A stretch of 64,000 nucleotides of DNA from a virus (IMGVR_UViG_3300031993_000021), one strand, 5' to 3'; numbered from the stretch's first letter, positions 2,813 to 42,865 are shown. Made by a program: numbers and translations. The notes: a model not told the origin generated them from the sequence alone.

Positions 2813-4624
2813 TTAGCGTTGCCAGGTGTCAATAATTGGACATTCTCCAAGATCCTTATAGTAGTTAAGAACGTTTGGAAATAGAACATCGTAATTATAT
2901 GATTCTGTCATACGCTCATTTATGCGCCGATGTGTTACAGATTCAGGAAGCAGGGGCTTAATGCCTCTATATATTAAACAGTCCTTAGAATCTCTAATAA
3001 ATGCCGTGGAACACTTGCGCCCGTTCATAAGCTCAACATAATAGCCGCTATACTGCGCATATGTTCCGGACTTTATTCCGGTGACGATACCAGAACCGCC
3101 ATAAATATTATTTAAAATCCATCCGTCACACTGATATATTGTAATCTCATCACCGATTACAATAGATTCAATCTGTTCAGAGAGTGGAGCGGGGAAGTAA
3201 AAAGGCTCCTTTGTCTTAGACTCTTGAGCCTGTGCCTTGAGTTCCTTCGAAGCTGTCAATATCTCGGAAGTGTCTGAGAGAATATAAACATAACGTGCAT
3301 AGTCATAGCCTTGAGGATCAATGATTAACTGTAATTTGTCATTTAGATAAATGGCTACACATTTATTACAGTAAAATTTGACGCTCTCGCGCTGTTCAGT
3401 ATTGAGTTGATACAGCTCTTTGATTTCTTCAAGTCTGACATCCTCGGAAGCTGTGCCGCCCTGACGGGCTAAAAATTCAAAATCACATAGAAACATAGAA
3501 GTAAATCTTTCATATGCTTCCGGACTTGTGAAGCGCACAGCGCGAGTTATTAAAGCGTCATTGTAATGTGGACATTCTTTAATTGACTCGTTGAGTTCTT
3601 CCATGTTGCATTCTTTGCCACAACCGCCAACAAGCGAAGTAATATAAATGCGGTCAAGTTCGGGCAAATCTTCAATAATTGCATCGTTGTAAATAAGCTG
3701 TTCCGACTCTCTGATCCATTTTTCGTGTTTTTCAGATTCTATGCGGGCGCGTTCCTGTTCTTCTCTGTATGCCTTCAATGCTTCTTCTTGCTGTCTGATT
3801 TCCTCGGCTATCTCTGCATCGTATGCGGTGCGCTCTGTCTCGGTCATTTTCTCGCGGGGTTCAAAGTCGGCTGGCTTCTTCAATTCTATGTCGAGATAAT
3901 AGCCAACATCAAAATAGTCCGTCATTATGTCGCTGTTGTTATAGTTCCACTGATTAGCTATTTCAAAAATTTTACATACACGTTCATAAAATGCCGTTGT
4001 AAGCTCCCAATAGTATTTTCTACCTTTATAATTATGAGCAATATTTAGACTTGAAAGCTTCTTAATGTTATACATTAAATAGCTATTATATGCGTTTTCT
4101 TGTTCTTCGGGTGTCATGTGTTCCCATTCTGACATATACAGCCAACGATCCCCAATATATGCGTCACGGTCTACCTCAAGAGTAAAGGCGGACATGTTGA
4201 AGCGTTTTTTCGCTTCCTCGATGCTTACAAAGTCGGGTGAAGATGCTTTAATGGTTAAAGTAATGCCGGTAGTATATCCGCTGCGCCCACTGCGGACAGT
4301 TACACCCTTAACGCCTCGGCGCTTCAACTCTTCACGGATTACTTTGGCAAGGTCTGAGCCGCAGCAAATTAACTCTTTATGTCCAACGCCATCCATGTTA
4401 ATACAATCGGCAGCAGGAGCCACAACGGGAGCGGGTGCAAGGTCGCCAAGTGAACGCGCAAAGGTTAGACGGTCTGCGGTCTGTTTTGCATACCAGAATT
4501 TTTTAGCATTGTGCCACCTGAACCCCTGCGCCTTAACTGCTGCGAGTGTGTCGGCGCTCGGCTTAGCCTCAAAAATTAACTCGATTCCATTCTTTTCATT
4601 GTTCAAATTAACTGTAATATTCAT
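2813..4624 (-). CDS. large modular hypothetical protein (603 aa) with small N-terminal domain and central coiled-coil, mobile-element type
   Basis: Long ORF with an RBS; N-terminal about 60-aa domain; central charged coiled-coil region (EEIRQQEEALKAYREEQERARIESEKHEKW); Cys cluster GGCGKEC...ECPHY. Confidence 0.45.
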   Translation of the reverse strand: MNITVNLNNEKNGIELIFEAKPSADTLAAVKAQGFRWHNAKKFWYAKQTADRLTFARSLGDLAPAPVVAPAADCINMDGVGHKELICCGSDLAKVIREELKRRGVKGVTVRSGRSGYTTGITLTIKASSPDFVSIEEAKKRFNMSAFTLEVDRDAYIGDRWLYMSEWEHMTPEEQENAYNSYLMYNIKKLSSLNIAHNYKGRKYYWELTTAFYERVCKIFEIANQWNYNNSDIMTDYFDVGYYLDIELKKPADFEPREKMTETERTAYDAEIAEEIRQQEEALKAYREEQERARIESEKHEKWIRESEQLIYNDAIIEDLPELDRIYITSLVGGCGKECNMEELNESIKECPHYNDALITRAVRFTSPEAYERFTSMFLCDFEFLARQGGTASEDVRLEEIKELYQLNTEQRESVKFYCNKCVAIYLNDKLQLIIDPQGYDYARYVYILSDTSEILTASKELKAQAQESKTKEPFYFPAPLSEQIESIVIGDEITIYQCDGWILNNIYGGSGIVTGIKSGTYAQYSGYYVELMNGRKCSTAFIRDSKDCLIYRGIKPLLPESVTHRRINERMTESYNYDVLFPNVLNYYKDLGECPIIDTWQR

Positions 4625-4859: not shown

Positions 4860-5552
4860 ATGAACATTGATAGAATGATTACTAATACTATAGAAGGATT
4901 CAAGGACGGACGCGCAACCGGCGCGGATGATTTAAGAACATTACTCGAATCGGATTATTTGACCGACGAAATAAAAGATTCTATATATAGAAGATTCACG
5001 GCAGACATAGAAGAATTTATAAATGATTATTTGACGCGAAGCGAGGACAAGAACGCAAGAAAAGGCATGATTTATTGTAACCTTGAAACATGGCAAGCGT
5101 GTTCTGATGATATAGGGAGATACTACTTTAAGCAAAATAAATATTTAGTTGAAAGTCACCGCAGGGGGGGAGCGTATCGCGAGGAACTTCTAATACTAGC
5201 GATGGAAGTATACGAACATTTTTGCAGACTATATCGGAAGCAGTTTTTTATTTACGATTGTGCTATGTTCCTAGGGATAACGCGCGAGACGATATACGAA
5301 TTAAGTAACAAATACTCTGACATGTTGAAAAAGGCGCACACCATGCAAGAATCTAGCATGCGCACTGCTTTAGCAAGTGGGCGATCCAACGTAACAGCAA
5401 TGGCAATTTTACTGAATCATGATTATGACTACACAAGAACGACTCAAGTCGTACATACAGTCGATAGAATTAAATCTGCGGACACACTTCCAACGTTGAA
5501 TATTGACGAAGAAACAAAATCTGACAGCTACCAGAATGAAGAAAAGCTTTGA
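4860..5552 (+). CDS. putative terminase small subunit (HTH, Terminase_2-like)
   Basis: GAGGT RBS then ATG at 4860; HTH FLGITRETIYELS; RSNVTAMAILLNHDYD resembles the TerS SxxSAxxxxxRLLxN motif; first gene of the long rightward operon; not adjacent to TerL. Confidence 0.35.
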   Translation: MNIDRMITNTIEGFKDGRATGADDLRTLLESDYLTDEIKDSIYRRFTADIEEFINDYLTRSEDKNARKGMIYCNLETWQACSDDIGRYYFKQNKYLVESHRRGGAYREELLILAMEVYEHFCRLYRKQFFIYDCAMFLGITRETIYELSNKYSDMLKKAHTMQESSMRTALASGRSNVTAMAILLNHDYDYTRTTQVVHTVDRIKSADTLPTLNIDEETKSDSYQNEEKL

Positions 5553-5776
5553 AAAGTGCATGGTTACTAGGTTTCACAGTATGAGTACATATGTTTACTA
5601 TTGCGCAAAATCATAATTTTACGAAAATCTGAACTAATGTTCAATCAATAGGGGGTAGGGGTTGCATACCGGACGCCCCCCAGGGGTAGGCTTAGCCCCT
5701 CAGTCACTCAAAATCCAAAAGTGGGTAATACAAATGGCTCAACCATGAGGGGTTACCCCAATTTTAAGGAGGAGAT

Positions 5777-6142
5777 ATGCCAAGCAAAAACACATCAGTA
5801 ATAAGTGCAAGGGTAAGGGATGATATAGCGGTGAAACTCGGAGAAATAGCGGAAAGAAAAGGAATCACCATTGCAAAGCTGATAGAAGACATGGTTGAGA
5901 AATATGAAACAGACGAAGAAAAAGGGGTTACCCCTCATGGTTATGGGCTTTTCGAGGAAATTGACACTCCATTAGGCATAAAACTTGAGAAACAGATGGA
6001 GAGATTAAGAGAAGGGGAGTATCCTGAACGGTTTATAAAGAATTTTGAAGATACGATTCTAAATGGAGTAAGGGAACAGATAGAGATGCTGCCGAAGAAA
6101 TTCAACTCAAAGAGAATGAAGAGTGATGATTGGGGGTGCTGA
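5777..6142 (+). CDS. ribbon-helix-helix domain protein
   Basis: SVISARVRDDIAVKLGEIAERKGITIAKLIEDMV is a CopG/Arc-like RHH; AGGAGG RBS. Confidence 0.45.
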   Translation: MPSKNTSVISARVRDDIAVKLGEIAERKGITIAKLIEDMVEKYETDEEKGVTPHGYGLFEEIDTPLGIKLEKQMERLREGEYPERFIKNFEDTILNGVREQIEMLPKKFNSKRMKSDDWGC

Positions 6143-6396
6143 GGATGCCTACTAAAGATTCCATGATAAAGACCGCGAGGATTACACAGGAAACATGGCG
6201 AAAGATGGAAGCATACATGGACAGGGAGGATGTGACTTTCTCAGGAGCGATAAGAAAGCTGGTTGATGAAGCGGATATTCCGAAGCAGAGAAGAGAGTTT
6301 GTTGATACGAAAGAGCTGGTAGACCTCTGTGAAAGGATGAATATCGAACCACAGACATTAATAGATGGGCTTGTAAGGGAGTTAAAGCGGGGATGA
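6130..6396 (+). CDS. ribbon-helix-helix domain protein
   Basis: TARITQETWRKMEAYMDREDVTFSGAIRKLVDEA RHH pattern. Confidence 0.4.
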   Translation: MGVLRMPTKDSMIKTARITQETWRKMEAYMDREDVTFSGAIRKLVDEADIPKQRREFVDTKELVDLCERMNIEPQTLIDGLVRELKRG

Positions 6397-15208: not shown

Positions 15209-17401
15209 ATGGATATAATTTCGTATGTACTTTCCAAACGCATTGCTGAAGGGGCGGTATCAGGCGTTAGTGGTATGTCTGTAGATGGACAGACTTTAAA
15301 TATAGAGCTTAACGATGGAACACATCTTGAGATGGAATTTCCTACACCGGAAGATGGTGTTTCTATAACTGACGTTAGTGTTGATTCAAGCAAGCATCTT
15401 ATCTGCACAATGTCAGACGGAACATCTATTGATGCGGGTGAAGTACCTACTGTTAAAGGTGATGATGGTGAGCCGGGAGCGGATGGAGAAGACGGAGAAT
15501 CTGCTTATGAGATTGCTGTTGATGAAGGATATGTTGGCACTAAGGAAGAGTGGCTTTCATCTTTAAAGGGCGATGATGGCTTTTCACCTGAGATAGTAGT
15601 TAAGACAAGCACATCTGAGCAGTACATCCTTACAATCACCACAAAGGAAGGTTCTTTTGACACGCCCAACTTAAAAGGCAGCGGAGCAGAAGCTTTAGCT
15701 GACCTTGATGATGTTCAGCTTACAAGCCTTACGACAGGTCAGATTCTTAAATGGGATGGGACCAAGTGGGTAAATGAAGATGGAATAGAGATTGATTCTC
15801 TTGGAGATATTAACGATGTTGATCTTGGAACGCTTGTGGACGGACAGGTTCTTTCATGGGATGCAACAAACAGTAAGTGGGTTAATGCAGATGCAGTAAA
15901 TCCCACACAGTTTGAAACCATGCCGACAGCATCAGAATATCCCCAGGCAGTGATTCAGTATATCGGAGCTGACACAGGTACATATAAGAGAGGATACTTC
16001 TACAGGTCAAATCCTTCTGTTGAGAGCGGAAGCGTTGTTTATACATGGGGACAGATTGATGTTCAGCCAAGTAACTCAGATTATGAGCAGCTTTCAAACC
16101 TTCCACAGATTGACAGTATAGAGATTATCGGCAATAAGTCACTTGATGACTTTGGAATACAGGGGAAAGTTCAGTTTTCTACTTTACCTGCTGCAACAGT
16201 TGAGAACGCTGGAAAGATTGTTCAGTACATCGGAACAACAACAGCGGCTCTTAAGAAGGGATACTTCTATCAGTCAGCATATGACGTTGAATCAGGTGAT
16301 TATGTCTGGGTGCAGGTAGATGTATCAAGCAACAGTGCTTTAGAAAGCAGATTAGATACTGTTGAGGATAACATAGGTGATATGTCAACTCTTGAAGTTG
16401 TTGGCGTAAGTGACCTTGTTGAGGCTGCAAATGCACTTAACGCAAAAGGGCTTAGCACAATCACATATGTTGAACCTAATTTAGTTCTTACATATGCCGA
16501 TGGTTCAGTTATCCGGTTTAACGTAAGGGATTCCATCCTGGATGAAACACAGATTGGTGAACTTGCAAACGTAACCGATACAGCGATAGCAAATGGTAAC
16601 GTTTTGCAGTATGACTCAGCAATCTTAGGATACAAACCTTATGATATCGGTGCTGCACTGACAGCGCTTTTAAATTCAGCAAAAGATTACACGGACCAGG
16701 AGATAGCAGGAGCAGTTCAGGACGATGCGTTTATCGTAGATGCAAAACCTGTTTGTAGTTATGATTCCGGAGCAGATGAATATATTGTTGTTTACTATCA
16801 GAACGGCGTTGTTCATACAACAACGGATACCACAGCAAGATTCTACTATAAAGTAAGCTCTGATCCGTATTGCACATCTTGGTTTGTAACAGGAGATCCT
16901 TCAGTAGATCCAGTTGAATTTACATATCTTCTTAGTACGCCTGATTTTGATGATTATGTCAATAAGAACACGGACGTAACATCAATATATACAACCGATA
17001 TGGTTGATAAGAGCAAGATTCCTAATGTAGCAGCTCTTGATGCTCTTATGGCAATAGTTAACACAGCACTTGCACTTAAGATTAATACATCAAGCATTGT
17101 TGATTCGCTTATTTCACAGGATGCAACAAAAGTCCTGTCGGCTAATCAGGGTTATGTGATAAGTGGTCTTATTGATGATAAGAATGACCAGATGCAGTTT
17201 ACGACAATGCCAAGTGCGGATTCAACTCTTGATGGTGTTGTTTATCAGTACGTAGGAACATCAAGTCAAGCATATACAAAAGGTGCTTTCTATACATGCA
17301 CTTACGATGAAGATAATGATACATGGTATTGGAAAGAAGTAGAGTTTGCCCCGGACATGGTTGCAATTACGACAGCCGAAGTTGATGCGCTTTGGGCATA
17401 A
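15209..17401 (+). CDS. tail fiber-like protein 1 (collagen-like G-X-Y tract, three internal repeats)
   Basis: GDDGEPGADGEDGES collagen-like triplets; three copies of the TMPxAS...QY(I/V)G...Y(K/T)(K/R)G(Y/A)FY module; acidic and Ser/Thr rich. Confidence 0.55.
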   Translation: MDIISYVLSKRIAEGAVSGVSGMSVDGQTLNIELNDGTHLEMEFPTPEDGVSITDVSVDSSKHLICTMSDGTSIDAGEVPTVKGDDGEPGADGEDGESAYEIAVDEGYVGTKEEWLSSLKGDDGFSPEIVVKTSTSEQYILTITTKEGSFDTPNLKGSGAEALADLDDVQLTSLTTGQILKWDGTKWVNEDGIEIDSLGDINDVDLGTLVDGQVLSWDATNSKWVNADAVNPTQFETMPTASEYPQAVIQYIGADTGTYKRGYFYRSNPSVESGSVVYTWGQIDVQPSNSDYEQLSNLPQIDSIEIIGNKSLDDFGIQGKVQFSTLPAATVENAGKIVQYIGTTTAALKKGYFYQSAYDVESGDYVWVQVDVSSNSALESRLDTVEDNIGDMSTLEVVGVSDLVEAANALNAKGLSTITYVEPNLVLTYADGSVIRFNVRDSILDETQIGELANVTDTAIANGNVLQYDSAILGYKPYDIGAALTALLNSAKDYTDQEIAGAVQDDAFIVDAKPVCSYDSGADEYIVVYYQNGVVHTTTDTTARFYYKVSSDPYCTSWFVTGDPSVDPVEFTYLLSTPDFDDYVNKNTDVTSIYTTDMVDKSKIPNVAALDALMAIVNTALALKINTSSIVDSLISQDATKVLSANQGYVISGLIDDKNDQMQFTTMPSADSTLDGVVYQYVGTSSQAYTKGAFYTCTYDEDNDTWYWKEVEFAPDMVAITTAEVDALWA

Positions 17402-17412
17402 GGAGATAAAAA

Positions 17413-19122
17413 ATGAGCTTAAAATATGCTGATGAGACAACTTTACAGGAAATGGTCGTAAAGACTAAACAACATGTTGAGTCAGTTCGTTCTACGCTAG
17501 ACTTAGCTAAACAGAACAAGATGGAATTAGCCACAATGCCGCAAGCCTCAGAGGATTATCTGGGGCTTGTAGTTATTTATACAGGTGTTACTAATTCCAC
17601 ATACACACACGGATATATTTACGAATGTGTTTCTGATGGTGGAGATCCCGCTACATATTCTTGGCAGCAGATTACCGTTCAGGATAGTGTGCAGGTTGAT
17701 GGTACTACTATTGTCAAAGACAGTCAGACAGATATTATCTCGGCAGCTGTTGCTACAAACAATACTGTTGGCGTAGTTAAGAGCGGTGATGGAACAAGTA
17801 TCGCGGCAAACGGTGGAGTAGATGTAACAGATAGGCTGAGAGAAGAGTATGTTGATGATCCTGGAAGCACCGTTCAAGACGTGGGCAGATTTGCTTTAAA
17901 TACAACTGAACACGGCGATTATAAGAAGGGCGGTATTTATCAGCTTGTAAGTACTCAGGTTACTCCTGTGGGAACAGAAAATCCCAGTGATGAGGGCTGG
18001 TATGAATATGACAGCACAAATCAGGAATATGAGTTATCTGAAGATGTTACAGTAGATGTTCAAAAGACATACTACACAATCGCATGGGTTTTAGTAAGCG
18101 CCAATTCAACAGAGTTTGATAGCGATGATTTTGATGTGGTCGGTGATAATGTAAGCCTTGACGTGTCTCAGAGAACATTCACAGGAACAAGAGATGAGTG
18201 GGATACATTAAGTAGCTCAGAAAAAGCACTCTACAAGCAAGTTGCACTTACTGATGATGAGGTTGCTTCACACGCTGATACCGATAATGAAATTGCAGAT
18301 ATGAATAATATCTTAGGTGCGAAGAATCTTTTGCCTGTAACAATGGTTTCGCAAGTTTTATCCGGAATTACATTTACTGTGGATGCTTCAAGCGGAGTAA
18401 TAAGCGTAAGTGGAAGCAATTCTGGAAGTCCTTTTAGTGATGTTCTTGGAATAACTACACTAACTCCTGGAACATATAAAGTGACAACAGGACAGACACC
18501 TGAGTTAAATGCACAGATTGGAATAGCTATAACGGATGCTTCTTCTGGAACAATTATAGCGCGTAGTTGGAATGGAACTGAAGTTTTTACAATTTCTTCA
18601 AACACTCAAGTGAGATTTCATATAGAAGTAAATGTTACAGGAGCAATCACTTCAACAGTCGTTTATCCAATGTGTAGACCTTTATCAATTAAAGATGAGA
18701 AATATGTGCCATATGCACCGACTAACCGAGCGTTGACTTTGCGAGTTAGCAGTTTTGAAAAAAAGTTTAATACTCAAGTTAGTATGACCGTCCAACCAAA
18801 TACGACATATTTTAATGCCGCTTCGTCTCAAAGTTGCGCAGCATTAAAAATCGGTTATCTTGTTGTGATGAACTTAGTTTTATCAGTTAAAGATAACGTG
18901 ACGGTTCCTGCTGGCACATTAGCATGCACTATTACCAATGTTGGAGCAATAAGCGCTAACAGCTCGATTTTCCTCGGAGGTAATGGTACATCAAACATCA
19001 CAAGGTTAATGCTTAGGAGAAATCAATCAAATTCCGATAATCTTGATGTTTACTTTATCGATTCTTATAGTAATAGTTCAATGAGAGCATCGCTTGTATT
19101 TATGGTCAATACTATTGTTTGA
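17413..19122 (+). CDS. tail fiber / receptor-binding protein 2
   Basis: Shares the TMPQASE...Y.HGYIYEC module with fiber 1. Shares the central NNILGAKNLLP...GITFTVDASSGVISVSG and VYPMCRPLSIKDEKYVPYAPTN blocks with fiber 3. Confidence 0.55.
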   Translation: MSLKYADETTLQEMVVKTKQHVESVRSTLDLAKQNKMELATMPQASEDYLGLVVIYTGVTNSTYTHGYIYECVSDGGDPATYSWQQITVQDSVQVDGTTIVKDSQTDIISAAVATNNTVGVVKSGDGTSIAANGGVDVTDRLREEYVDDPGSTVQDVGRFALNTTEHGDYKKGGIYQLVSTQVTPVGTENPSDEGWYEYDSTNQEYELSEDVTVDVQKTYYTIAWVLVSANSTEFDSDDFDVVGDNVSLDVSQRTFTGTRDEWDTLSSSEKALYKQVALTDDEVASHADTDNEIADMNNILGAKNLLPVTMVSQVLSGITFTVDASSGVISVSGSNSGSPFSDVLGITTLTPGTYKVTTGQTPELNAQIGIAITDASSGTIIARSWNGTEVFTISSNTQVRFHIEVNVTGAITSTVVYPMCRPLSIKDEKYVPYAPTNRALTLRVSSFEKKFNTQVSMTVQPNTTYFNAASSQSCAALKIGYLVVMNLVLSVKDNVTVPAGTLACTITNVGAISANSSIFLGGNGTSNITRLMLRRNQSNSDNLDVYFIDSYSNSSMRASLVFMVNTIV

Positions 19123-19172
19123 TTGATGCATTTTATAAACATTGAGACCACGAGTTTAGGAAGGAGAGAACA

Positions 19173-20696
19173 GTGGGATTATATGAAAATACACAAGATG
19201 GATTAAAACTTATAGCGGGTTCGACTCTATATGCAGATTTAGCTGTGGGTTCGATTATACCTTTTGGTGGTTCTGTGATACCTACATCTTTCCTTCTTTG
19301 TGATGGAAGTGCTATAAGTAGAACAGGATATGCAGAGCTGTTTGCAGCTATAGGAACAGCATTTGGCACAGGTGATGGAAGTACAACGTTTAATCTTCCT
19401 GATCTAAGAGAGTCCGTACCAAAGGGTGCAGGAGAGACAGGACAGACAGTTGGCGCTCATGTAAAGAGCGGTGGTCTTGCTGTCGGTGAGTTCTTGGATG
19501 ATAGAATACAAGACCATACGCATGAGCTTTCAGAAACACCTAATTTTTCTTATTTAACTGGTGAGGGAAACTATAAAGTTGTTCCTGTTTCTAGTGGTTC
19601 TACTCCAACTGGTACAGTCTCAAACACTTATAGATATGGTGCTACCACCGAAGTCAAATCAGTAGGTGTCAACTACATCATCAAAGCAAAACCGGTTGCA
19701 GTTCCAGCTGATTTCATCGATGCAGCAGAAGATTATATCGATGGAAAGTTAGCTGATAAGCAGTCAACATACGCAGCTGATTCTACAAAATGGGATGCAG
19801 CACCTACCACAGGAAGCACAAAGCCTGTCATAAGTGATGGAATAAAGACACAGTTTGATTTAGTACATAATGAGCTTTCTGATGTAAATAATATCCTTGG
19901 TTCAAAGAATATCCTGCCAAACAGTGCTACAACACAGGTAATAAATGGTATCACATATACTGTTGCAGCTGATGGTAGTGTAAATGTAAACGGAACAGCT
20001 ACGGCTGATTCTATTTTGCATATTATTCCTGGAACGATAGGAAAGCTTAGCAATATATTCTCCAAGGGTGGAAATTATATTATCTCCGCAGGAACAACAG
20101 GAACAGGAGTTGATGTTTTCTTTGGTCTTGAGTACACAGGCACAACTTGGGATATTGGAGAATGGCTTAAATATACAACGCAGCTCTCAAAGGAAATATA
20201 TATTGACGGAACGAAATTAAATAACAGTTCATCCTATATAGAGAGCTATATAAAGGTAAATAGCGGAACTACAGTAAGTAACATCAAAGTATATCCTATG
20301 CTTAGACCGTCGTCGGTTAGGGATGATACATATGTTCCTTATAGCAAGACGAATTATGAACTTACTGAGGAAAATAAAGAACTTAGTTCGGAAATTAGCA
20401 ATTTTGCGCACACCGTGTCTGGCAATAAAGTTGATATAACACCATATAATTCAAGCTCTAATGCTTATACAGCGCAATCAGATGGATATTTATATCTAAA
20501 TAATCAGAACAACCCTAACTTGACAATATTGGTATATATCAATGACTCAGCGGGTTATTCAATCGGTGGATGTAGACATTTTTCGGGCGGAACAACGTTC
20601 CAAATAACATCCTTATATGTCAAAAAAGGACTTAAGCTTTACAGAGCCGATGGTTCAAGTGCAGGCGTTGCATGGTTTTTCCCGCTTGAATCCTAA
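19173..20696 (+). CDS. tail fiber / receptor-binding protein 3 with switchable C-terminus
   Basis: Homologous central domain to fiber 2 (NNILGSKNILP...GITYTVAADGSVNVNG, VYPMLRPSSVRDDTYVPYSKTN). The last 100 codons lie inside an apparent invertible segment. Confidence 0.6.
   Translation: MGLYENTQDGLKLIAGSTLYADLAVGSIIPFGGSVIPTSFLLCDGSAISRTGYAELFAAIGTAFGTGDGSTTFNLPDLRESVPKGAGETGQTVGAHVKSGGLAVGEFLDDRIQDHTHELSETPNFSYLTGEGNYKVVPVSSGSTPTGTVSNTYRYGATTEVKSVGVNYIIKAKPVAVPADFIDAAEDYIDGKLADKQSTYAADSTKWDAAPTTGSTKPVISDGIKTQFDLVHNELSDVNNILGSKNILPNSATTQVINGITYTVAADGSVNVNGTATADSILHIIPGTIGKLSNIFSKGGNYIISAGTTGTGVDVFFGLEYTGTTWDIGEWLKYTTQLSKEIYIDGTKLNNSSSYIESYIKVNSGTTVSNIKVYPMLRPSSVRDDTYVPYSKTNYELTEENKELSSEISNFAHTVSGNKVDITPYNSSSNAYTAQSDGYLYLNNQNNPNLTILVYINDSAGYSIGGCRHFSGGTTFQITSLYVKKGLKLYRADGSSAGVAWFFPLES
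20396..20411. repeat. left inverted repeat / putative recombinase crossover site (tAGCAATTTtGCGcAC)
   Basis: 14/16 nt identical to the reverse complement of 21072-21087; lies in frame within the fiber 3 codons ...S N F A... Confidence 0.45.
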
Positions 20697-20780
20697 ATTA
20701 ATAGAGTTCCTTTAATCGAATTTCGACGATAAATTTGCTATAAACAAAAATATTTAATAAGTAAACGAATTTGTTTAGCT

Positions 20781-21089
20781 TTAGATAGGCATAAGCGGAT
20801 AGAAGTAAGCTGTTCTATGGTCAGTTGTTCCGCCCAATTTAACTTTTAAGCCCTTTCGGATAAAGAGTGCTAAATAGGGTGTTGAATATAAGCCTGCATT
20901 TGGCGGTGAACTTACATTCAATACATCACGATTTGTATTTTCAATTTGCAACCAAGCATAACGACCTTGTGCATTATCAAACGTTATTGTAACGTAACCA
21001 TCACAAGGAATTTCGTGCCAATAACTGTCTGTCCAACTTGTGAACCCCGTTGTATCGAGCTTGTAAGATTGGTTCGCTAAATTGCTATA
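20781..21089 (-). other. silent alternative tail-fiber C-terminal cassette (102 codons, no start codon, no RBS)
   Basis: Minus-strand frame open from just after a stop at 21090-92 to the stop at 20781-83. It encodes YSNLANQSYKLDTTGF...CDGYVTITFDNAQ...LFIRKGLKVKLGGTTDHRTAYFYPLMPI, homologous to the fiber 3 C-terminus ...SDGYLYL...LYVKKGLKLYRADGSSAGVAWFFPLES. Confidence 0.55.
21072..21087. repeat. right inverted repeat / putative crossover site
   Basis: Reverse complement TATAGCAATTTAGCGAA matches 20396-20411; in frame with the cassette codons Y S N L A. Confidence 0.45.
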
Positions 21090-21291
21090 TTACGAAGATC
21101 TTAACTTGCTGGTAAGAGAATATATTATCTTTTAAAACGCAAAAAACGCTTATTTTAGGGAAAAGCTAACTTGCTTTTAATTTGCTGATATACCATTAGT
21201 AGGTATAAACAGTAACGCTGATGCTACGTGCAAAGGCTGTTGGTTTTTTAGATACATAAAGAATCTAAAATAGGAACTCAAATGATTTGAG

Positions 21292-22332
21292 TTGTTATTG
21301 AAAGAAATTAAACCTCCTGTCAATATAATGGCAGGAGGTGATTTTGTGGAAGAAGTAATAAACAAAATTGTAAATGCGATGGATGATTTAACTCCGGAGC
21401 AGATAAGGAAATTAAAGAATGTATTGGTTATAAATCTCAGCAACCGATATGAACAAAAGAACGAGGTTTGTACAAGCTTAAGTAGTTGGGAGATGCTATT
21501 AAATAATTATCTTGGCTGTAAAAAGCTTGAAAACTGTTCTAACGGTACGCTAAAGAACTATCAGAGAATTGTAAGGATTATGTATTCTCAGATAGGAAAA
21601 GATATTAGGGATATAACAGCTAATGATCTTAGATTGTTTATGGCAAGATACATTGAGCAGCGAAAGATTTCTACACGATATTCTGAGACGATAAGGCTTA
21701 CGCTTTGTGCGTTTTTTCAATGGTGTCAGAATGAGGAAATCATAACTGCGAACCCGGCTAGAAAGTTGCAAAGAATAAAGATTCCTAAAATGCTTAGAAA
21801 GCCCTACACAGCAGAGGAAAGGCTAAGGCTTACAAGAGCTGCTAAAAATATAAGGGACATAGCAATAATGGAAGTACTTTATAGTACAGCTGCTAGACTG
21901 GGTGAGATTTTAGCATTGAATATAGACGATATCAAATTTATTGGAAATAAAGCTGAAATCATCATCTACGGGCAAAAAGGCAAGGCAGAAAGAAAGGTAT
22001 ATCTTTCAGAAGAAAGTGTCTACTTTCTGAGAAGATACTTGGAATCAAGAACTGATAATGATCCAGCACTTTTTGTTTCTTTGCGTAAACCGCATAAGAG
22101 GATTGATGAAAGAGCTGTTCAGCGAATGATAAAGGATATAGGTGAAAGATGTGGAATTAAGGCACATCCTCACAAGTTTAGAAGAACACTCTTAACAGAC
22201 ATGAGTAAGCGTGGAGCAAGTATTCAGGATATTAAGGAATACGCCGGTCATGCAAAGATTGAAACGACTATGCTTTATGTTTCTGTTAATGAAGAATCGG
22301 TCAAAGCCGCATTTGATAGATTTATAAGTTGA
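21292..22332 (+). CDS. tyrosine recombinase (XerC/D / Rci-like), candidate fiber invertase
   Basis: N-terminal SAM-like core-binding domain; catalytic residues R (AARLGE), HxxR (HPHKFRRT) and Y (TTMLYVSV). Sits immediately next to the invertible fiber segment. The phage also carries a separate serine integrase. Confidence 0.7.
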   Translation: MLLKEIKPPVNIMAGGDFVEEVINKIVNAMDDLTPEQIRKLKNVLVINLSNRYEQKNEVCTSLSSWEMLLNNYLGCKKLENCSNGTLKNYQRIVRIMYSQIGKDIRDITANDLRLFMARYIEQRKISTRYSETIRLTLCAFFQWCQNEEIITANPARKLQRIKIPKMLRKPYTAEERLRLTRAAKNIRDIAIMEVLYSTAARLGEILALNIDDIKFIGNKAEIIIYGQKGKAERKVYLSEESVYFLRRYLESRTDNDPALFVSLRKPHKRIDERAVQRMIKDIGERCGIKAHPHKFRRTLLTDMSKRGASIQDIKEYAGHAKIETTMLYVSVNEESVKAAFDRFIS

Positions 22333-22432
22333 AAATACTAAAATATAGGCTTTTAGAAGCTGTCCGAGAGGATGGCTTATTTTGCGTGTATTTTTTTATA
22401 AACATTTATGAGAAGACGAAAGGAGAAGTATT

Positions 22433-22930
22433 ATGTTTAGACTTGTTGAAATCACAAGGAGTGCGGATAATGAAACTCAGGCACTAAGAGAGTATGCATC
22501 AGAGGTAGAAGCAAGTGGAGAATTGCATTACAGGCTTGGAACAGCAATGAAAGATGAAAACACTCAGGTAAAACTTCTTCTCTTGCTTAATAATATCGGT
22601 GAGGTTGTAGAAAGCGGAAGCCATTTTAAGACTCATGAAGTTGAAGAAGTAGTTGAAACTGAGAATGGCGAAACGGAGACAATCACCACTGAAGTAGAGT
22701 ATGAGGTTAGCCCAAGACTTATCGACGTAAAGGTAACAGACAGTGAAGTTGGTAATATTGCCAAATACGATACAAACCTCGATGTAGTAGCAAACTATCA
22801 TAGCAAGCTTGGTTCTGCTAAGAAAAACGCAGATGTAAAAGCAATTATGCTTAGAGGTATCGATGGCAAAGGAAACCAGCTTGAGTATACATATTGGGTT
22901 AGACCGGCAACCGTACCTAGTGAATCATAA
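22433..22930 (+). CDS. hypothetical acidic protein
   Basis: ORF with AGGAGAAG RBS. Confidence 0.35.
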   Translation: MFRLVEITRSADNETQALREYASEVEASGELHYRLGTAMKDENTQVKLLLLLNNIGEVVESGSHFKTHEVEEVVETENGETETITTEVEYEVSPRLIDVKVTDSEVGNIAKYDTNLDVVANYHSKLGSAKKNADVKAIMLRGIDGKGNQLEYTYWVRPATVPSES

Positions 22931-22943
22931 ATGAGGGCAGAAT

Positions 22944-23282
22944 ATGTTTACAACGGGACAGATTTGGGGCTTTTTAGTTGTACTTATAGGACTTATCCTT
23001 ACGATATTAAACATCATAGAGAAAGCAATCCTTCTTAAAGCAAGGTCGAAAGAACCACAGGCAAAATTAGAGAGCAGGATAGTGGCTCTTGAAACATGGA
23101 GATTAGAAGTGAACCAGAGACTTGATAAGGACGAAGAACACTTTGACAAGATTGATGAAGGAAACAAGGTGACGCAGCAGGCGCTTCTTGCGTTAATGGA
23201 TGCTGCCTTGTCGGATGATGGAAGCAAGGGTGAACTTAAATCAGCAAGAAAAGACTTATATGAATATCTGTCAAAGAAATAG
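22944..23282 (+). CDS. BhlA/UviB-like holin-type membrane protein
   Basis: Single N-terminal TM (IWGFLVVLIGLILTILNII) followed by coiled coil, as in BhlA-family proteins. Confidence 0.35.
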   Translation: MFTTGQIWGFLVVLIGLILTILNIIEKAILLKARSKEPQAKLESRIVALETWRLEVNQRLDKDEEHFDKIDEGNKVTQQALLALMDAALSDDGSKGELKSARKDLYEYLSKK

Positions 23283-29991: not shown

Positions 29992-32900
29992 ATGGGGATG
30001 AATACTATGAATGTAGATTCATTAAACATACAAATTAAATCAAGCGCAACTGATGCTAAAAATTCTATAAATGGTCTTGTCGATTCTCTTAAATCATTAA
30101 ATAGGCAACTTGGCTTAAAAGAAGGCACCAAATTTGTAAATACAATCAATGCTATGTCAAGTGCTATTGAAACCCTTACGAAAAATGTCAATGGAATGGG
30201 TAACATGGCATCCGGCTTAGATAAAGCAACTGAAAGTGCTGAAGGTGTTTCAAAGGCAACGCAGAATGCGACAGATAATACCAAACAATTGCTTGCTGTT
30301 GTAGATAAGGTATCTAAAGAGTTTGGTGATTATTCCAAAATGGTTGATAGAGCATTTCAATTGGATACTCATCAAGCGTTCGATTCAAAGCCTTTCGCAG
30401 ATGTAACAAAAAAGACAGAAAAGCTGCTTCCCGCGACTACACGAGTTACAGAACAGATAGAGAAGTTAGTTAAAGATTTTAATGCTATAAATCCTACTCA
30501 TTTTGATAACATGGAGGAAGGTGCGAAAAAAGCCGTAGTACCGATTGAGGAACTGCTTAATTCTATTAGGAATTACAAGAAAGTTATTTCGGAAACAGAG
30601 AGTGGAAAACGTGCATTTGATCTTAAATTATACAATGATGCAGTAGTAGGGCTAAATAAAGCAAAAAAAGCTGTTGATGAGTATAAGAAATCACTTATTG
30701 GAGCAGAAGAAGCAACTAACACTTTGTCCGAAAAGATGACATCGCTTAATACAAAAACAGCGGTATCATCTATTCCAAAAGATTTTAAAGAAGTATATGA
30801 AAATGCATTAAAATCAGCTCAGGCTGCGGAAGAGTTAGCAAAAGGAACGCATAAAGCAAAAAGCGAGATTGAACAGCTGCTTGAAAAGTACAGGGAATAT
30901 AAAAAGCTTATTTCCGAAATGGAAAGCGGAAAAAGACCTTTTGATGAAAATGAGTATAATGCAGCGGTTAAAGGCTACAACCAGGCTAAAAATGCAATCG
31001 AGGAATACAAGAAATCTCTTACTAAAGTACCTGATAAGCCAAAGGCATTTTCTTTTGCACAAGACCTTTTACCTCGGCTTGTTGTGCTTGAAAAGGAATT
31101 TGATAACATTGCAGGCAAATTAAACATGTTGGCGGGCAAAGGCGTTGCATTATTTAAACTAATGGTTACACCGCTTAAGCTTGCGGCAAAGGAATATGTT
31201 GAAAAATTCGAGAATTTAAAATCAGCAGTAGAAGGTTTTCGTGACCATATAATATCAAGTTTAAAAAGAGTATCGCAATTTTGGGCTAGAACGATGCGCA
31301 CATTTACCTTTATGCTTGTCAGAAAAGCAATTACAGCAATTATTTCTGAGGTAAATAATGCTATAAAATCTTTAGCTCAGTTTTCAAATGCAATGGGAAC
31401 TCAGTTTAATCAGAGTATTTCTAATCTTGTTGCTGATTTCCAGTATTTAGGTCGCTCTATTGTAAGTGTTTTCGCGCCTTTGTTAGAGACAATCACACCT
31501 ATTATTGATGCCATTGTTGAGAAGATTGCAACGCTTCTTTCATATATAGGTATGTTATTTGCTGTATTAGGTGGAAAATCATCTTTTACAAAAGCAAAGA
31601 AAGAAATGGTTAATTATGGAGCAGCCGCTGGCAAAGCTGCTAAATCCGTTAGTACTCTGACAATGGGAATAGATGAACTTAATATTCTTTCAGAGAACAA
31701 AGGTGGTGGCGGTGGAGATGGTGCTTCTAATCCGCTTTCAGGATGGGAAGAAATTGATATTCCGGATGGCGTTAAGCACATTGCCAATATGCTTAAGAAA
31801 ATGTGGGATGATTTTATGCGTCCTATTAAAGCCGCCTGGGAAAAGATGAAGGACTACTTCAAAAAAGCATGGACTTATATGCTTAACCAGGCAAAGAAGC
31901 TCGGTAAATCTATCTGGGATGCGTTTATTGAAGTATGGAACGAACCTAAAACCATTGAAATGATCGCTAATATTTTTGGAATTATAGCTGATTTGATGTT
32001 TGTTATTGGCAATCTTTGCAAAAATTTTAGAGAATCTTGGGATGAAGTGGTTGATGGTGCTACCAGAGGAGTTCATATATTTAGGGGTATCCGAGACATT
32101 TTTGCTGTTCTTATTGAACATGTAAGAAATGTAACGAAATATATGATTTATTGGTCGGACAGCATTACCTTTGATCCATTACTTGACAGTATTATCAAGT
32201 TACTTCATTCGTTCTATGACTTGGCTGATTTTATTGGCGGTGTATTTGAAGATGTAATGAAAAGAGTTGTTCTTAAATACATCAAATGGATGATTGAAGA
32301 GGGAATACCTCATCTAAATCACAAGATAGCAGAGATAATTGATGCATTTGATTTTGAAAAGATTCGTCAGGATTTAGTGCCTCTAGAAGATGCATTTGAA
32401 CGATTACTTGAGCATATACATACAGGTGTTACTGATGCATTAGGAAATCTCGGTTTACAAATTGCTGAATTTACAAATTCAGAAGAGTTTACAGATTTCC
32501 TACAAAGACTTGCCGATATCATGGATATGTTTTCCTCGGAAGATGTTGAAAAGATATTGACTGGAATAGGCATGGGAATTTTAGGAGTAGCTGATGGATT
32601 AGTACAGTTTGTAAATTCTGATCTATTCATGTCGTTTCTTGAGAAGCTTGATGAGTGGCTTGAAAATGCCACGGCAGAAGATATTGCTACCTTACTTCAA
32701 AGAATTGCCTTTGCTATTGGATTATTTAAGTTCGGTGCTTTTGCAGGCGAAGGATTTGCAGGATTCCTTAGATTTGCAATGATGCTGAAATCTTGGACAA
32801 ATCTAAACACTATTGCAGAGGGGTTAACAGCAACAGGAGCAGGAGCTTCTACAGCGGCAGGAGGATTTGCAGCTCTCGCTGAACCTGCTCTTTTAGTGGC

Positions 32901-34989
32901 TGCGGTATTGGCATTAGTTGTAGCTGCAATTTATTCATTGGTTAGTTCATATGGCGGATTAATCGGAACACTTGATGAACTAAAGAAAAGATTCAGCGAC
33001 TTAAAACAAAAGATGGTCGAGTACGCAGAACAAAAAGGTTTGTTTGATGCAGTGGATAGGCTTAAAGAAACCTTTGGTAAATTGCTTGAAAAGCTTGGCG
33101 ATTTAAAGGATTTCTGGGACATTCTTTTGACTATAGCGTTCAAGGTTGAAGAGGTCTTTGGAAAAAGACTTGTTAATGCAATCAAGATTCTTGTATTTAT
33201 TGTTGAACGTTTCATCAATCATATCAATAATCTGATTGATATCCTTGGTGGCGTATCAACAATGATTAAAGGTGTTATCTCAGCAATACAAGGTGTTCTT
33301 ACCCTAGATTTCGATAAAGCTAGTGAAGGTCTTGATAAGATAGGTGAAGGCTTTAAAAGGGCAGGAAAAGCGGCTGTTAATGATTTTGTTGATACGATGC
33401 TTCCTCAATGGGATGCAGTCAAGGATAAGATTACGAAAAAAGCTTCTGGTACATTAAGTGCTAGTTTAGCTGGAATTCCTGATCTTACAAAAGCAACTGC
33501 TCAAGCAACTGGAACGGCTATTGCTGATAATGAGGCAGCTTCATATACAGCAGCTATTCAAGCGTTACAACCATCATTAGAAACATCTAATGCAATGATG
33601 GTTGCGGGTGTGCTTAAGAGTGTAGAAAAAGCAGATTATGCATCGGCAGGAAACACATTTGCAACCGGACAATACACTGCTTACACAGATAGCATAAATA
33701 ATACAGATTTTGCTTCGCTTGGAACACTTTGGAATACGATGACTGGTGATGCGTTAAAGAATTCAAGCTCTGTATTCAATGATGCTAACACAGAAACATC
33801 CGAAGCAGGTGCGGCACAGTTTAGTGATGCTTATATGAATTATATGAACAATACAAGCACACTAGGACAAGGCATGTCTGATTATGGTCAAACAGTTGGG
33901 CAGACCTTTATCGAATCAGCTAATGCTGGGCTTTTGGATAATATGGGCTTAACAAAAGATGTTATCGGCAAGTGGTTTGATATTATTCAGGAAACTATGG
34001 ATGACAATATGTCAAGGGTTTTGAATTCGGGATTCTTTGAGAAATTCATTAAAACCTTCGAATCAGGATTAAGCCCAGATAGATTCAAAATCATAGGAAC
34101 ATCAATAACGATTGCGATTGCGCTTGGTGTAAATCAGGGCATGTACGCAATGAATACTGTGCTTAGTAATATCTTCATGTCTATGACACAGACAATCAAT
34201 ACATATATTGTTATGCTAAGCACAAATATTCAAACAATGCTAATGCCTATGTTTGCAACCGTCTTTGCTTCATTTATTACTTGGTTCGATGAAGCCATGA
34301 GCATGTGGTGGAATGAAAAAGTGGTATTCTGGTTCACTGCATCAAAATGGGATGAAGAGATATTCACACCGCTTGCAGAGAATATTCATGGACACTTTGA
34401 ACTTTTCACTACATGGTGGGATACATCAATGAATGCATGGTGGGAAGATCAAGTAGCACCTTGGTTTGAAGAACAAAGATGGACGGATGAATTCAATCAT
34501 ATTCTTGATGCGGCTAAAGCGGTATTTACTTTGATTGAGGAACATATTCAGCAACACATGGAAGCAGCTCAAGAAATAGTAGAACATTCTTGTGATAGCA
34601 TGAAAGAAGCTATAAAGAGTGTCATGGATGAGATTGATGAGCTTATTGAAAAGTTGAATGAAGTTCCCAGTGAAGTTTCTTTCCATGCACCATATGGTTT
34701 TGCAAGCGGTGGTTTTCCTTCAACCGGTTCGTTATTCTTTGCAAATGAAGCAGGACCAGAACTTGTTGGTACTATTCATGGAAATACTGCTGTTGCAAAC
34801 AATAATGAGATTACAGGAATTAGGGAAGCGGTACTTGCAAGCGGAAATCAAGAATCAGAACTTTTAGCTAGACTTATCACGATAACGCAGGCACTTCTTG
34901 ATAAAGAGCCTGTCGTTATTGATGATAGGGATATAGCAAGAATGGCTACAAGCGGTCAAGGTAGGCTTGGAATGAATATAATAACTTGA
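29992..34989 (+). CDS. tail tape measure protein (1665 aa)
   Basis: Very long alpha-helical/coiled-coil protein with internal repeats (ESGKRxFD..YN.AV.G.N.AK.A.EEYKKSL x2), TM stretches and a Gly-rich segment. Position after the chaperones. Confidence 0.8.
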   Translation: MGMNTMNVDSLNIQIKSSATDAKNSINGLVDSLKSLNRQLGLKEGTKFVNTINAMSSAIETLTKNVNGMGNMASGLDKATESAEGVSKATQNATDNTKQLLAVVDKVSKEFGDYSKMVDRAFQLDTHQAFDSKPFADVTKKTEKLLPATTRVTEQIEKLVKDFNAINPTHFDNMEEGAKKAVVPIEELLNSIRNYKKVISETESGKRAFDLKLYNDAVVGLNKAKKAVDEYKKSLIGAEEATNTLSEKMTSLNTKTAVSSIPKDFKEVYENALKSAQAAEELAKGTHKAKSEIEQLLEKYREYKKLISEMESGKRPFDENEYNAAVKGYNQAKNAIEEYKKSLTKVPDKPKAFSFAQDLLPRLVVLEKEFDNIAGKLNMLAGKGVALFKLMVTPLKLAAKEYVEKFENLKSAVEGFRDHIISSLKRVSQFWARTMRTFTFMLVRKAITAIISEVNNAIKSLAQFSNAMGTQFNQSISNLVADFQYLGRSIVSVFAPLLETITPIIDAIVEKIATLLSYIGMLFAVLGGKSSFTKAKKEMVNYGAAAGKAAKSVSTLTMGIDELNILSENKGGGGGDGASNPLSGWEEIDIPDGVKHIANMLKKMWDDFMRPIKAAWEKMKDYFKKAWTYMLNQAKKLGKSIWDAFIEVWNEPKTIEMIANIFGIIADLMFVIGNLCKNFRESWDEVVDGATRGVHIFRGIRDIFAVLIEHVRNVTKYMIYWSDSITFDPLLDSIIKLLHSFYDLADFIGGVFEDVMKRVVLKYIKWMIEEGIPHLNHKIAEIIDAFDFEKIRQDLVPLEDAFERLLEHIHTGVTDALGNLGLQIAEFTNSEEFTDFLQRLADIMDMFSSEDVEKILTGIGMGILGVADGLVQFVNSDLFMSFLEKLDEWLENATAEDIATLLQRIAFAIGLFKFGAFAGEGFAGFLRFAMMLKSWTNLNTIAEGLTATGAGASTAAGGFAALAEPALLVAAVLALVVAAIYSLVSSYGGLIGTLDELKKRFSDLKQKMVEYAEQKGLFDAVDRLKETFGKLLEKLGDLKDFWDILLTIAFKVEEVFGKRLVNAIKILVFIVERFINHINNLIDILGGVSTMIKGVISAIQGVLTLDFDKASEGLDKIGEGFKRAGKAAVNDFVDTMLPQWDAVKDKITKKASGTLSASLAGIPDLTKATAQATGTAIADNEAASYTAAIQALQPSLETSNAMMVAGVLKSVEKADYASAGNTFATGQYTAYTDSINNTDFASLGTLWNTMTGDALKNSSSVFNDANTETSEAGAAQFSDAYMNYMNNTSTLGQGMSDYGQTVGQTFIESANAGLLDNMGLTKDVIGKWFDIIQETMDDNMSRVLNSGFFEKFIKTFESGLSPDRFKIIGTSITIAIALGVNQGMYAMNTVLSNIFMSMTQTINTYIVMLSTNIQTMLMPMFATVFASFITWFDEAMSMWWNEKVVFWFTASKWDEEIFTPLAENIHGHFELFTTWWDTSMNAWWEDQVAPWFEEQRWTDEFNHILDAAKAVFTLIEEHIQQHMEAAQEIVEHSCDSMKEAIKSVMDEIDELIEKLNEVPSEVSFHAPYGFASGGFPSTGSLFFANEAGPELVGTIHGNTAVANNNEITGIREAVLASGNQESELLARLITITQALLDKEPVVIDDRDIARMATSGQGRLGMNIIT

Positions 34990-42016: not shown

Positions 42017-42045
42017 ACCTCTACCCGCTTTTTATTTGTTCTTTG
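42013..42045. terminator. bidirectional terminator
   Basis: CGGGTAGAGG attaaa CCTCTACCCG followed by TTTTTATTT; sits between convergent genes. Confidence 0.55.
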
Positions 42046-42865
42046 TTATTTCATCAAAGATTTTCTGAATTTCGTCCTTGGGAATATTCGGAATAGATGA
42101 TTTAATGATATCTATTGATACGCCATTCTTATATAAGTTTTCAGCTATTTTTTTGCAAGCTTTAAGCTCAACTTGGTCTAATACATCACACATGGTACTA
42201 CCTCCTTCCACGAGTTCTCCTTGTATACTCTCAAATCTATCATCATCAGTTAGAACAGAGAGAATTTTCAGGAGTGGATCTGGATACTCTATTTTTTCTG
42301 TTATTTCTGCAACTTTGCTTTTATCATGCATAAATTTTGCAAGAATCTTAAAGTCACTATGAAATAGATTATCGATTTCTTCATTGGACATATGAGCAAT
42401 ATCAAATACGTTTATATGATAATCGCTAACATATTTATCTAGGCATTTTGGAATGTCTAATCTTTCTTTAAGACTTCTTGGTGCACTCCAAGGCTTTTCG
42501 CCATAATACAATACTATTGTTATTACCGGATATCTGCTTGGATTGTCTTTGTCTAAGAGTTGGCTTCTGTATGAAGCGCCATCATAACCAATTACTCTCA
42601 AGACCATATCATTGTCTATTTTCGTTTGATTTTCAATGCCGATAATTGAAAAAATGACATCTTCTTTTACCCATCTTTTTGCAATATCACGTTCTTGCTC
42701 ATGGAGCTTGCTGTCATCAGCTTTATATTGCGATTTCGTAGGTAGGTCTAATAATTCATCTTCTTTGATTGTTTGATTTCCTCCAAAGAGAGTTCCGTTG
42801 ATAATATCGGCAAATATCTTGTTTATCTCTTCAAAGTGTTTTTCTGCAATGTCTTTAGTTCCCAT
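42032..42865 (-). CDS. Rpn-family (YhgA-like) PD-(D/E)xK recombination-promoting nuclease / putative transposase
   Basis: The pattern ...IFSIIGIENQTKIDNDMVLRVIGYDGASY ... PVITIVLYYGEKPW matches the Rpn/Transposase_31 core. Confidence 0.5.
   Translation of the reverse strand: MGTKDIAEKHFEEINKIFADIINGTLFGGNQTIKEDELLDLPTKSQYKADDSKLHEQERDIAKRWVKEDVIFSIIGIENQTKIDNDMVLRVIGYDGASYRSQLLDKDNPSRYPVITIVLYYGEKPWSAPRSLKERLDIPKCLDKYVSDYHINVFDIAHMSNEEIDNLFHSDFKILAKFMHDKSKVAEITEKIEYPDPLLKILSVLTDDDRFESIQGELVEGGSTMCDVLDQVELKACKKIAENLYKNGVSIDIIKSSIPNIPKDEIQKIFDEITKNK

Follow-up and report, generated by a model that had tools for sequence, protein, structure and literature searches.

The fibre switches of Mu (Gin and the G segment), P1 (Cin and the C segment) and p15B (Min) are operated by serine invertases (summarised in PMC6109161). 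The R64/IncI1 shufflon is built on a tyrosine recombinase, Rci, which uses sfx sites to vary the C-termini of pilV in the conjugative thin pilus. The first phage-encoded tyrosine invertase acting on the C-termini of receptor-binding proteins (RBPs) was the Rin shufflon of Bifidobacterium breve and B. longum prophages (Mavrich et al. 2018; PMC6109161), and Rin was later found in Eggerthella lenta prophages (2022; PMC8778435). Statistically, tail-fibre genes and the neighbourhoods of tyrosine recombinases have more programmed inversions than expected (PMC9881135); the same paper discusses the class of Xer-like invertases that shuffle hsdS in phase-variable Type I restriction-modification loci. 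Here we describe a locus in a 64-kb stretch of viral DNA (IMGVR_UViG_3300031993_000021; hereafter the window), the whole of which is phage sequence. The locus comprises a fibre gene, a silent alternative tip and the gene of a Xer-like tyrosine recombinase, and we consider it quite probable that together they form a site-specific switch with two states, in which inversion decides the C-terminal tip of the fibre. An earlier note on this DNA had proposed such an architecture, and its interpretation is largely supported: a fibre body, two inverted in-frame sites, a silent tip and an adjacent recombinase are all present, and the arrangement recurs in every close relative examined. The kind of system is less new than that note assumed: a fibre shufflon driven by a tyrosine recombinase was in print by 2018 (PMC6109161).

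The locus resembles Rin in several respects. In both cases a phage-encoded, armless Xer-like recombinase adjoins start-less alternative C-termini (~95-100 aa) of an RBP or fibre, short asymmetric sites mark the boundary between the constant and variable parts, inversions are seen by genome comparison, and a separate integrase is found elsewhere. Unlike Rin, however, the site here is the 24-bp TTCGnAAwwTAGCAATTTnGCGAA rather than the 11-bp rix, TTCCCTAACCC (PMC6109161); the window has one silent cassette, and hence a binary choice, whereas Rin has 3-5 cassettes; the variable gene encodes a Collar-domain fibre between the MuF and capsid genes, and not a TP901-1-like RBP after the tape measure; and the hosts appear to be rumen/gut Clostridia rather than Actinobacteria. 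Because the site differs, the locus falls outside Rin at the sequence level, a separation drawn on site and layout.

The logic is that of the Mu G, P1 C and p15B Min systems: inversion would join a constant fibre N-terminus to one of two or more C-termini, with the sites at the boundary, and so yield virions that differ in receptor specificity. But here it is a tyrosine recombinase that adjoins the segment, with no small serine invertase of the Hin/Gin family there; the segment contains no tail-fibre assembly (U/U') gene, and a Fis-type enhancer is not expected. The combination of a tyrosine recombinase with invertible segments for alternative adhesin C-termini is shared with R64, and in some relatives of the window locus (L009) only one site arm is conserved, which may parallel sfx, where asymmetric sites with a single conserved arm restrict the reaction to inversion. 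The differences are that the target is a Collar-domain phage fibre in a structural module, not pilV, and that there are two sites, not seven. Rci was not identified among the plasmid matches listed for the recombinase, in which those from plasmids of IncI-type hosts are ~23% identical. Similarly to hsdS invertase loci, inversion within a coding sequence swaps specificity domains, although these belong to a virion fibre here and to the target-recognition domains of HsdS, in a defence system, there. In the PMC open-access subset and bioRxiv, we found no paper on a rumen/gut Clostridia phage lineage of the switch.

The fibre gene, its two tips and the crossover sites

The fibre gene (fibre 3; 19173..20696, plus strand) encodes 507 aa by open reading frame (ORF) and translation, and its product is identical to the database protein P0001. 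It carries a Phage Tail Collar domain at its N-terminus (Pfam, 4e-22). The constant body, codons 1-408 (19173..20396), has at its centre a domain common to many fibres and ends in a neck helix, ...KELSSEI; up to position 20373 its nucleotides are 88-91% identical to those of three related loci (L001, L002 and L006). A predicted helix spans the junction between body and tip (...E-I-S-N...). The remaining 99 codons and the stop form the expressed variable C-terminus, which we call tip A (20397..20696, plus strand; SNFAHTVSGNKVD...AWFFPLES). In a structure model with a pLDDT of 79, tip A is a small jelly-roll beta-sandwich beyond the neck helix, which resembles fibre, TNF and C1q-type heads in fold only generically.

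On the opposite strand, converging on tip A, lies a silent cassette of 101 codons plus a stop, tip B (20781..21086, minus strand; SNLANQSYKLDTTGF...AYFYPLMPI). The earlier note had described this counterpart as lacking both a start codon and a ribosome-binding site, and this description is borne out: reading from 21086 to 20781, a TAA stands two codons before the Ser-Asn pair, and the first in-frame start occurs only at codon 46 of the 101 open codons. The disabling stops or frameshifts that the note had named as a possible flaw are absent. The two C-termini, which it called homologous, align within one tip family, at 22% identity and with the common motifs DG[YF] and [KR]KG; a direct BLASTP comparison of tips A and B is weak (E 1e-4 over 26 residues).

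To judge by its matches, tip B is a functional part that is expressed in other phages. Its protein sequence is 99% identical to the expressed C-termini of P0064, P0065, P0067 and P0070, and 90% identical to that of P0091. These five proteins have unrelated N-terminal bodies, to which the tip B-type end is joined at ..QISN-LANQSYKLD.., that is, at the same junction as is predicted for the flipped form of the window gene. Moreover, the active tip of locus L028 (Logan SRR27753965 contig, 5694..6395), which has the same type of site and tips, is 98.6% identical in nucleotides to window positions 20736..21091; there, the tail module is of the TTP-TMP-Dit type and includes a 332-aa RBP that has tip B as its active end. 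The silent partner in L028 is the CPNFLSGSY tip, which is active in L002.

Each of the two tips in the window is headed by a crossover site. The left site (20387..20410, plus strand; TTCGGAAATT-AGCA-ATTTTGCGCA) is within the fibre gene, and its AGC AAT core encodes S409-N410. The right site (21073..21096, minus strand) reads TTCGTAATAT-AGCA-ATTTAGCGAA on the minus strand, with a non-coding 5' arm; it lies 690 bp downstream of the left site, is inverted, and heads tip B, which is promoterless as well as start-less. The left site also forms one arm of an inverted repeat, I2, of 25 nt at 80% identity. That an inverted repeat sits where the two proteins begin to differ was noticed earlier, and the site has turned out to be longer than claimed, at 24 bp. 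The 15-nt motif AGCAATTTnGCGnAC occurs exactly twice in the 64 kb, at 20397 (plus) and 21086 (minus), against 0.10 expected from shuffled sequence, with none of 100 shuffles reaching two matches. AGC-AAT (Ser-Asn) is in frame in both copies, and inversion would give ...SSEISN-LANQSYKLD..., with TTCGGAAATTAGCAATTTAGCGAACCAATC as the predicted junction sequence of the flipped form. The in-frame fusion put forward in the earlier note is thus one whose ISN-LANQ junction is seen in real proteins.

The heads of active and silent tips in related loci yield 30 distinct sites, 27 of which were classed (11 active, 16 silent). Their consensus, TTCG(C/G)AAwwT-AGCA-ATTTnGCGAA, is 24 bp long and near-palindromic: two arms of ~10 bp, reverse complements of each other, surround an asymmetric AGCA centre. 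This arm-core-arm arrangement is the usual layout of the core sites of tyrosine recombinases, such as dif, loxP and FRT. A consensus site heads each active and each silent tip across about 25 related loci. Both window sites match the pattern TTCGNAANNTAGCAANTT with 0 mismatches and have the 9-bp core TAGCAATTT in common, and a scan with the pattern finds only these two in the window. The 5' arm is equally conserved at silent sites, where it is non-coding, and at active sites, where it encodes helix. Its conservation where it is non-coding points to a constraint on the DNA and not on the protein. The 3' arm is conserved in the window and degenerate in L009 and L013, while the 5' arm is conserved everywhere. 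Scanning IMG/VR with the 24-nt pattern turned up one more genuine locus, L029, whose two sites are inverted and separated by 665 bp; a scan for a degenerate 17-nt site gave single matches among those listed, as chance predicts for 14 specified bases.

Two further candidates for sites were rejected. The TAACTTGC boxes that the earlier note suggested as accessory sites are explained by chance (3 in the window, with 2.7 expected): the copy at 20517 is no match, reading TAACTTGA, and the region with the other two boxes is missing from L001, L002 and L006. The second candidate is a TATAGCAAATTT motif near 20731..20745 (minus strand) in the 84-nt, AT-rich spacer between the convergent tips (20697..20780), which also contains an 8-bp AT-rich hairpin, TAAACAAA...TTTGTTTA. 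The motif is not seen in most of the relatives' spacers, which are 0-103 nt long, sometimes only 0-10 nt, and hold no conserved third site; the single other core-like match, in L028, falls in sequence homologous to the window. It is probably a chance occurrence or a relic. The similarity between the window and L028 stops around this motif.

Orientation of the segment in related contigs

The comparative evidence comes from metagenome assemblies, in the form of rumen and gut contigs; a megablast of 17400..22400 against GenBank phages gave no match. Contigs with recombinases at 59-95% identity to that of the window repeat the gene order portal, MuF, fibres, silent tip, recombinase, and the order fibre, silent tip, recombinase is found in L001-L006, L009-L013, L016, L020 and L154-L162. 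In four pairs of contigs, from different studies, a bounded segment is present in opposite orientations while the flanks are collinear and 96-100% identical. For these pairs of relatives, therefore, both orientations occur among near-identical genomes, which is what marks an inversion as programmed.

Loci L009 and L013 are collinear at 99.6-100% identity except for a 628-bp segment, which is reverse-complemented at 99.4% identity and bounded by the perfect inverted repeat TTCGCAAATTAGCAATTT. As a result of this difference in orientation, the tips SNLGNYSTTEH... and SNLTNRFKTV... trade active and silent positions. A second inverted segment in the same pair, of 560 bp, lies across the recombinase gene (L009 6081..6627 / L013 7081..7627) and serves a convergent fibre gene, on the minus strand, with a tip pair of its own; its variant core, AGCAAATTTGCGAAC, encodes Ser-Lys-Phe-Ala-Asn. 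Since the two segments have slightly different cores, one recombinase appears to serve both. The second segment is also inverted between L023 and L009, with L023 in the L013 orientation. In L154 and L161, which encode an identical recombinase protein (P0126), 412 bp are inverted beside a collinear flank of 99.7% identity, and the active tip of L154 is silent in L161.

The comparison of L010 with L002 involves more than one fibre. The tip pair of fibre 2 in L002 is found in the opposite orientation in L010 (654 bp, 96.6%), where it is joined to the body of fibre 3. L010 can be derived from an L002-like array of four sites by two inversions, the first between sites 1 and 4 and the next between sites 2 and 3, and its hybrid sites have exactly the combinations of arm and tip that these two inversions predict. 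Four sites are present in L001, L002, L009 and L150.

Fibre 3 is the last of three fibre-like genes in the window, of 730, 569 and 507 aa, which occupy 15209..20696 between the portal/MuF genes and the capsid genes. In L001-L005, fibre 2 has its own site and inverted silent tip, making a four-site array together with fibre 3. The fibre 2 gene of the window (17413..19122), 50 nt from fibre 3, has neither a recombination site nor a silent cassette; its counterparts are at 4011..5450 in L001 and 4053..5555 in L002. Some 10 kb separates the fibre genes from the beginning of the tape-measure gene (29992..34989), the distal-tail genes are likewise far away, and the placement of the fibres between portal/MuF and the capsid region is kept in relatives. 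The window fibres may be neck or head fibres, side fibres or accessory adhesins, and not the primary tail-tip RBP. Relatives have genes for a BrnT/BrnA toxin-antitoxin pair immediately before the portal gene (L002-L004 1..339).

The recombinase and its presumed relation to the sites

The presumed invertase is a Xer-like tyrosine recombinase of 328 aa, encoded at 21346..22332 (plus strand), with Phage_integrase and SAM-like core-binding domains. It matches Pfam Phage_integrase (3e-33), the NCBIfam XerA-like family (2e-59) and XerA in the PDB (1.6e-35), and its residues R184, K213, H276, R279, H302 and Y311 align with the catalytic residues of XerD and XerA. All six catalytic residues and the two-domain fold thus identify it as a tyrosine (lambda-Int/Xer) site-specific recombinase. 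The gene had been placed previously at 21292..22332 with intact catalytic residues; the residues are indeed intact, but alignment to relatives and a GGAGG box suggest that the start is most likely the GTG at 21346, behind that box, and not the TTG at 21292.

The protein is made up of core-binding and catalytic domains only, with no N-terminal arm-binding domain detected, and its gene lies between fibre and capsid genes; in both respects it departs from integrases of the lambda-Int type. It is intact, is 94-95% identical to the recombinases of relatives, and has >5000 homologues at E <= 1e-10. Among plasmids, the match with the best score is a full-length one at 38.8% identity, in the Ligilactobacillus salivarius plasmid NZ_CP020859.1, where the gene sits between oppositely oriented hsdS genes; this is a locus of the known hsdS-shuffling class. 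With its catalytic residues intact and this match to an hsdS locus, the recombinase looks like an invertase and not like an integrase. The role of integrase likely belongs to a large serine recombinase of 449 aa at 46148..47497, 25 kb away, which would not be involved in flipping. The earlier note had pointed to this gene, a domain search confirms it, and it is the only serine recombinase in the window. A YhgA-like (Transposase_31) gene is found at 42032..42865 (minus strand), between the lysis genes and the serine recombinase.

In relatives that have the recombinase, its gene adjoins invertible segments or stands between two of them. The site core TAGCAATTT is found where the recombinases are 75-95% identical to that of the window. 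At greater divergence the core changes. In L008, whose recombinase is 59% identical, the core is TAGTGATTT, with Ser-Asp replacing Ser-Asn; its inverted repeat (4087..4120 / 4885..4918) has the same 5' arm (CGCAAAwT) and delimits a segment of ~800 bp just upstream of the recombinase. In L150, a prophage of Wansuia hejianensis with a recombinase 52% identical, the core is AACAGTAATTT at four sites. From adjacency, the architecture of the sites and the manner in which site changes track recombinase divergence, we infer that the window recombinase acts on these sites.

The L150 locus (CP060635.1 1805038..1816027) has its sites at 4401, 4951, 6113 and 6672, flanking the recombinase gene, so that exchange between the two outermost sites would invert the recombinase gene as well. 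Its core again encodes ..N-S-N-L.., and its four tips are intact (77-104 aa). As a system in a cultured Lachnospiraceae prophage, L150 offers a tractable experimental model. We did not count L150 and L152 as a clean inversion: the tips are rearranged at only 82-88% identity, and the frames of L152 are broken. The named relatives of the window locus are few and belong to the Lachnospiraceae and Oscillospiraceae.

More distant homologues of the recombinase, 30-36% identical and annotated 'integrase', are found in the Clostridium phage phiCp-D (21639..22616; L026) and in TPELB_ph1 of Terrisporobacter (17645..18640; L027), in both cases between the last tail gene and the holin. We found no convincing invertible segment or inverted repeat beside either. 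TPELB_ph1 has a second annotated integrase of ~527 aa; that it is a large serine recombinase is assumed on the basis of length only.

The leader of the recombinase gene (21097..21345, plus strand) contains an insert of ~160 nt and a hairpin at 21312..21339. In the hairpin, ACCUCC pairs with the GGAGGU Shine-Dalgarno sequence (-20.2 kcal/mol, z = -6.2), and a U-run follows. In 9 relatives the hairpin persists despite base changes, which are of wobble type and in a few cases compensatory. It probably attenuates translation or transcription and would limit the level of the invertase, in line with low, stochastic expression. The insert (21097..21260), between the right site and the rest of the leader, is missing in L001, L002 and L006, and the region holds a 30-nt direct repeat (21086-21115 and 21151-21180, 70% identity). 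A block of the insert, GCTGATATACC..GGTATAAACAGTAACGCTGATGCTACGTGCAAAGGCT, is also present in L010 (1144..1250) and in L020 (2560..3170), where the insert at the equivalent place is ~600 nt long. Rfam gave no credible match in 19000..23000 or in the longer leaders of L010 and L020.

Proposed mechanism, rival readings and possible exchange of tips

We propose that the Xer-like recombinase would bind the arms of the sites and exchange strands in their shared core, such that the segment 20397..21086 flips. The flip would join the fibre body in frame to tip B, and tip A would then be stored as the silent copy. Because the recombinase gene is outside the segment, it would be expressed in both states; and because a strong hairpin, conserved in relatives, sequesters its ribosome-binding site, the level of the enzyme, and with it the frequency of switching, should stay low. 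A population of lysogens, or a single burst, would then hold two types of virion with different adhesin tips, a form of bet-hedging on receptor variation, and the switch may play a role in host range or in adhesion to some other target.

Several observations weigh against this proposal. The flipped form of the window phage was not found: the 27-mer of its predicted junction is absent from IMG/VR, homologues retrieved with the predicted flipped protein were either the native form or other bodies that end in tip B, and neither the recombinase, queried with three possible starts, nor fibre P0001 was retrieved by exact sequence from the contig index. The two window sites differ from each other at 5 of 24 positions, all in the arms, so that activity on this particular pair is assumed. 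In L028 there is no recombinase within ~2 kb downstream, and none was detected across the 8.1-kb locus, which suggests action in trans or a recombinase gene elsewhere on the genome; adjacency is thus not universal. Finally, the host-range role has to be set against the position of the fibres, in the head-gene region and away from the tape-measure/baseplate module. Both the missing flipped copy and the 5 arm differences would fit a fossil, descended from an invertible system but no longer flipping in the window phage, its silent tip and sites being recent relics, or spare parts of use only on an evolutionary time scale. The same reading gains from fibre 2, which has a site in L001 and L002 and none in the window, so either a site can disappear or those two relatives alone acquired one. 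We nonetheless think a fossil unlikely. The recombinase ORF is intact, with all of its catalytic residues and 94-95% identity to those of relatives, tip B is free of stops and frameshifts and 98.6% identical in nucleotides to an expressed copy, and both sites match the family pattern without a mismatch and have the full core in common.

It is less likely still that the recombinase serves in integration, dimer resolution or the exchange of cassettes between phages, while some other enzyme or short-homology recombination does the flipping. Such a division of labour would fit with a recombinase that is Xer-like by sequence, with the sites and tips of L028 that have no recombinase nearby, and with the phiCp-D and TPELB_ph1 homologues (30-36%), annotated as integrases and adjoining no convincing invertible segment. 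But in relatives the gene adjoins invertible segments or stands between two, the sites have an arm-core-arm form and a core that changes along with recombinase divergence, and the protein has no arm-binding domain. The window, moreover, has a separate large serine recombinase (as would TPELB_ph1, if its ~527-aa protein is one, as assumed from length), and at 18-24 bp the repeats offer little length for a RecA-dependent inversion. This last length also bears on whether the orientations seen in relatives are misassemblies across repeats, with an antisense ORF that is open by chance. All of the comparative evidence is drawn from metagenome assemblies; but the repeats are shorter than typical assembly k-mers, so the junctions must be supported by reads, four contig pairs, independent of one another and drawn from different studies, agree in this pattern, and expressed proteins match the antisense ORF at 99% identity. 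We regard an artefact of this kind as extremely improbable.

Apart from switching within one genome, the proposed two-state inversion switch raises the question of exchange between genomes. The 97 tips that we gathered form 53 clusters at 50% identity, all of them after the ..(E/Q)ISN junction, and the shared ..ISN.. junction is present on at least four unrelated fibre bodies. Outside the fibre tips, L001 and L002 share 97-99.97% identity, and yet they have eight different tips. The tip B similarity between the window and L028, where the body is that of an unrelated RBP in a tail module, begins inside the site. It is conceivable, and we offer it tentatively, that the site acts as a universal joint common to unrelated phages of one ecosystem, through which the recombinase would mediate horizontal exchange of tips among co-resident prophages or co-infecting phages, with an integron-like common pool of tips. 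The tip differences between L001 and L002 are equally well explained by homologous recombination in the conserved flanks; since its body is unrelated, L028 alone argues specifically for exchange at the site.

In the papers that we found, tyrosine-recombinase fibre switches are documented in two groups of Actinobacteria prophages; this locus with its relatives is a second, large lineage, whose defined 24-bp site is embedded in the stretch that encodes a neck helix. One junction that joins dozens of tip types to several unrelated bodies amounts to a natural, frame-preserving splice point, which could serve in the engineering of fibre specificity and in the annotation of receptor-binding domains in uncultured rumen/gut phages. 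For the phages themselves, switchable receptor-binding tips let a temperate phage hedge against variation in the receptors of its host. One genome would then have two adsorption phenotypes, which complicates the prediction of hosts from phage genomes.

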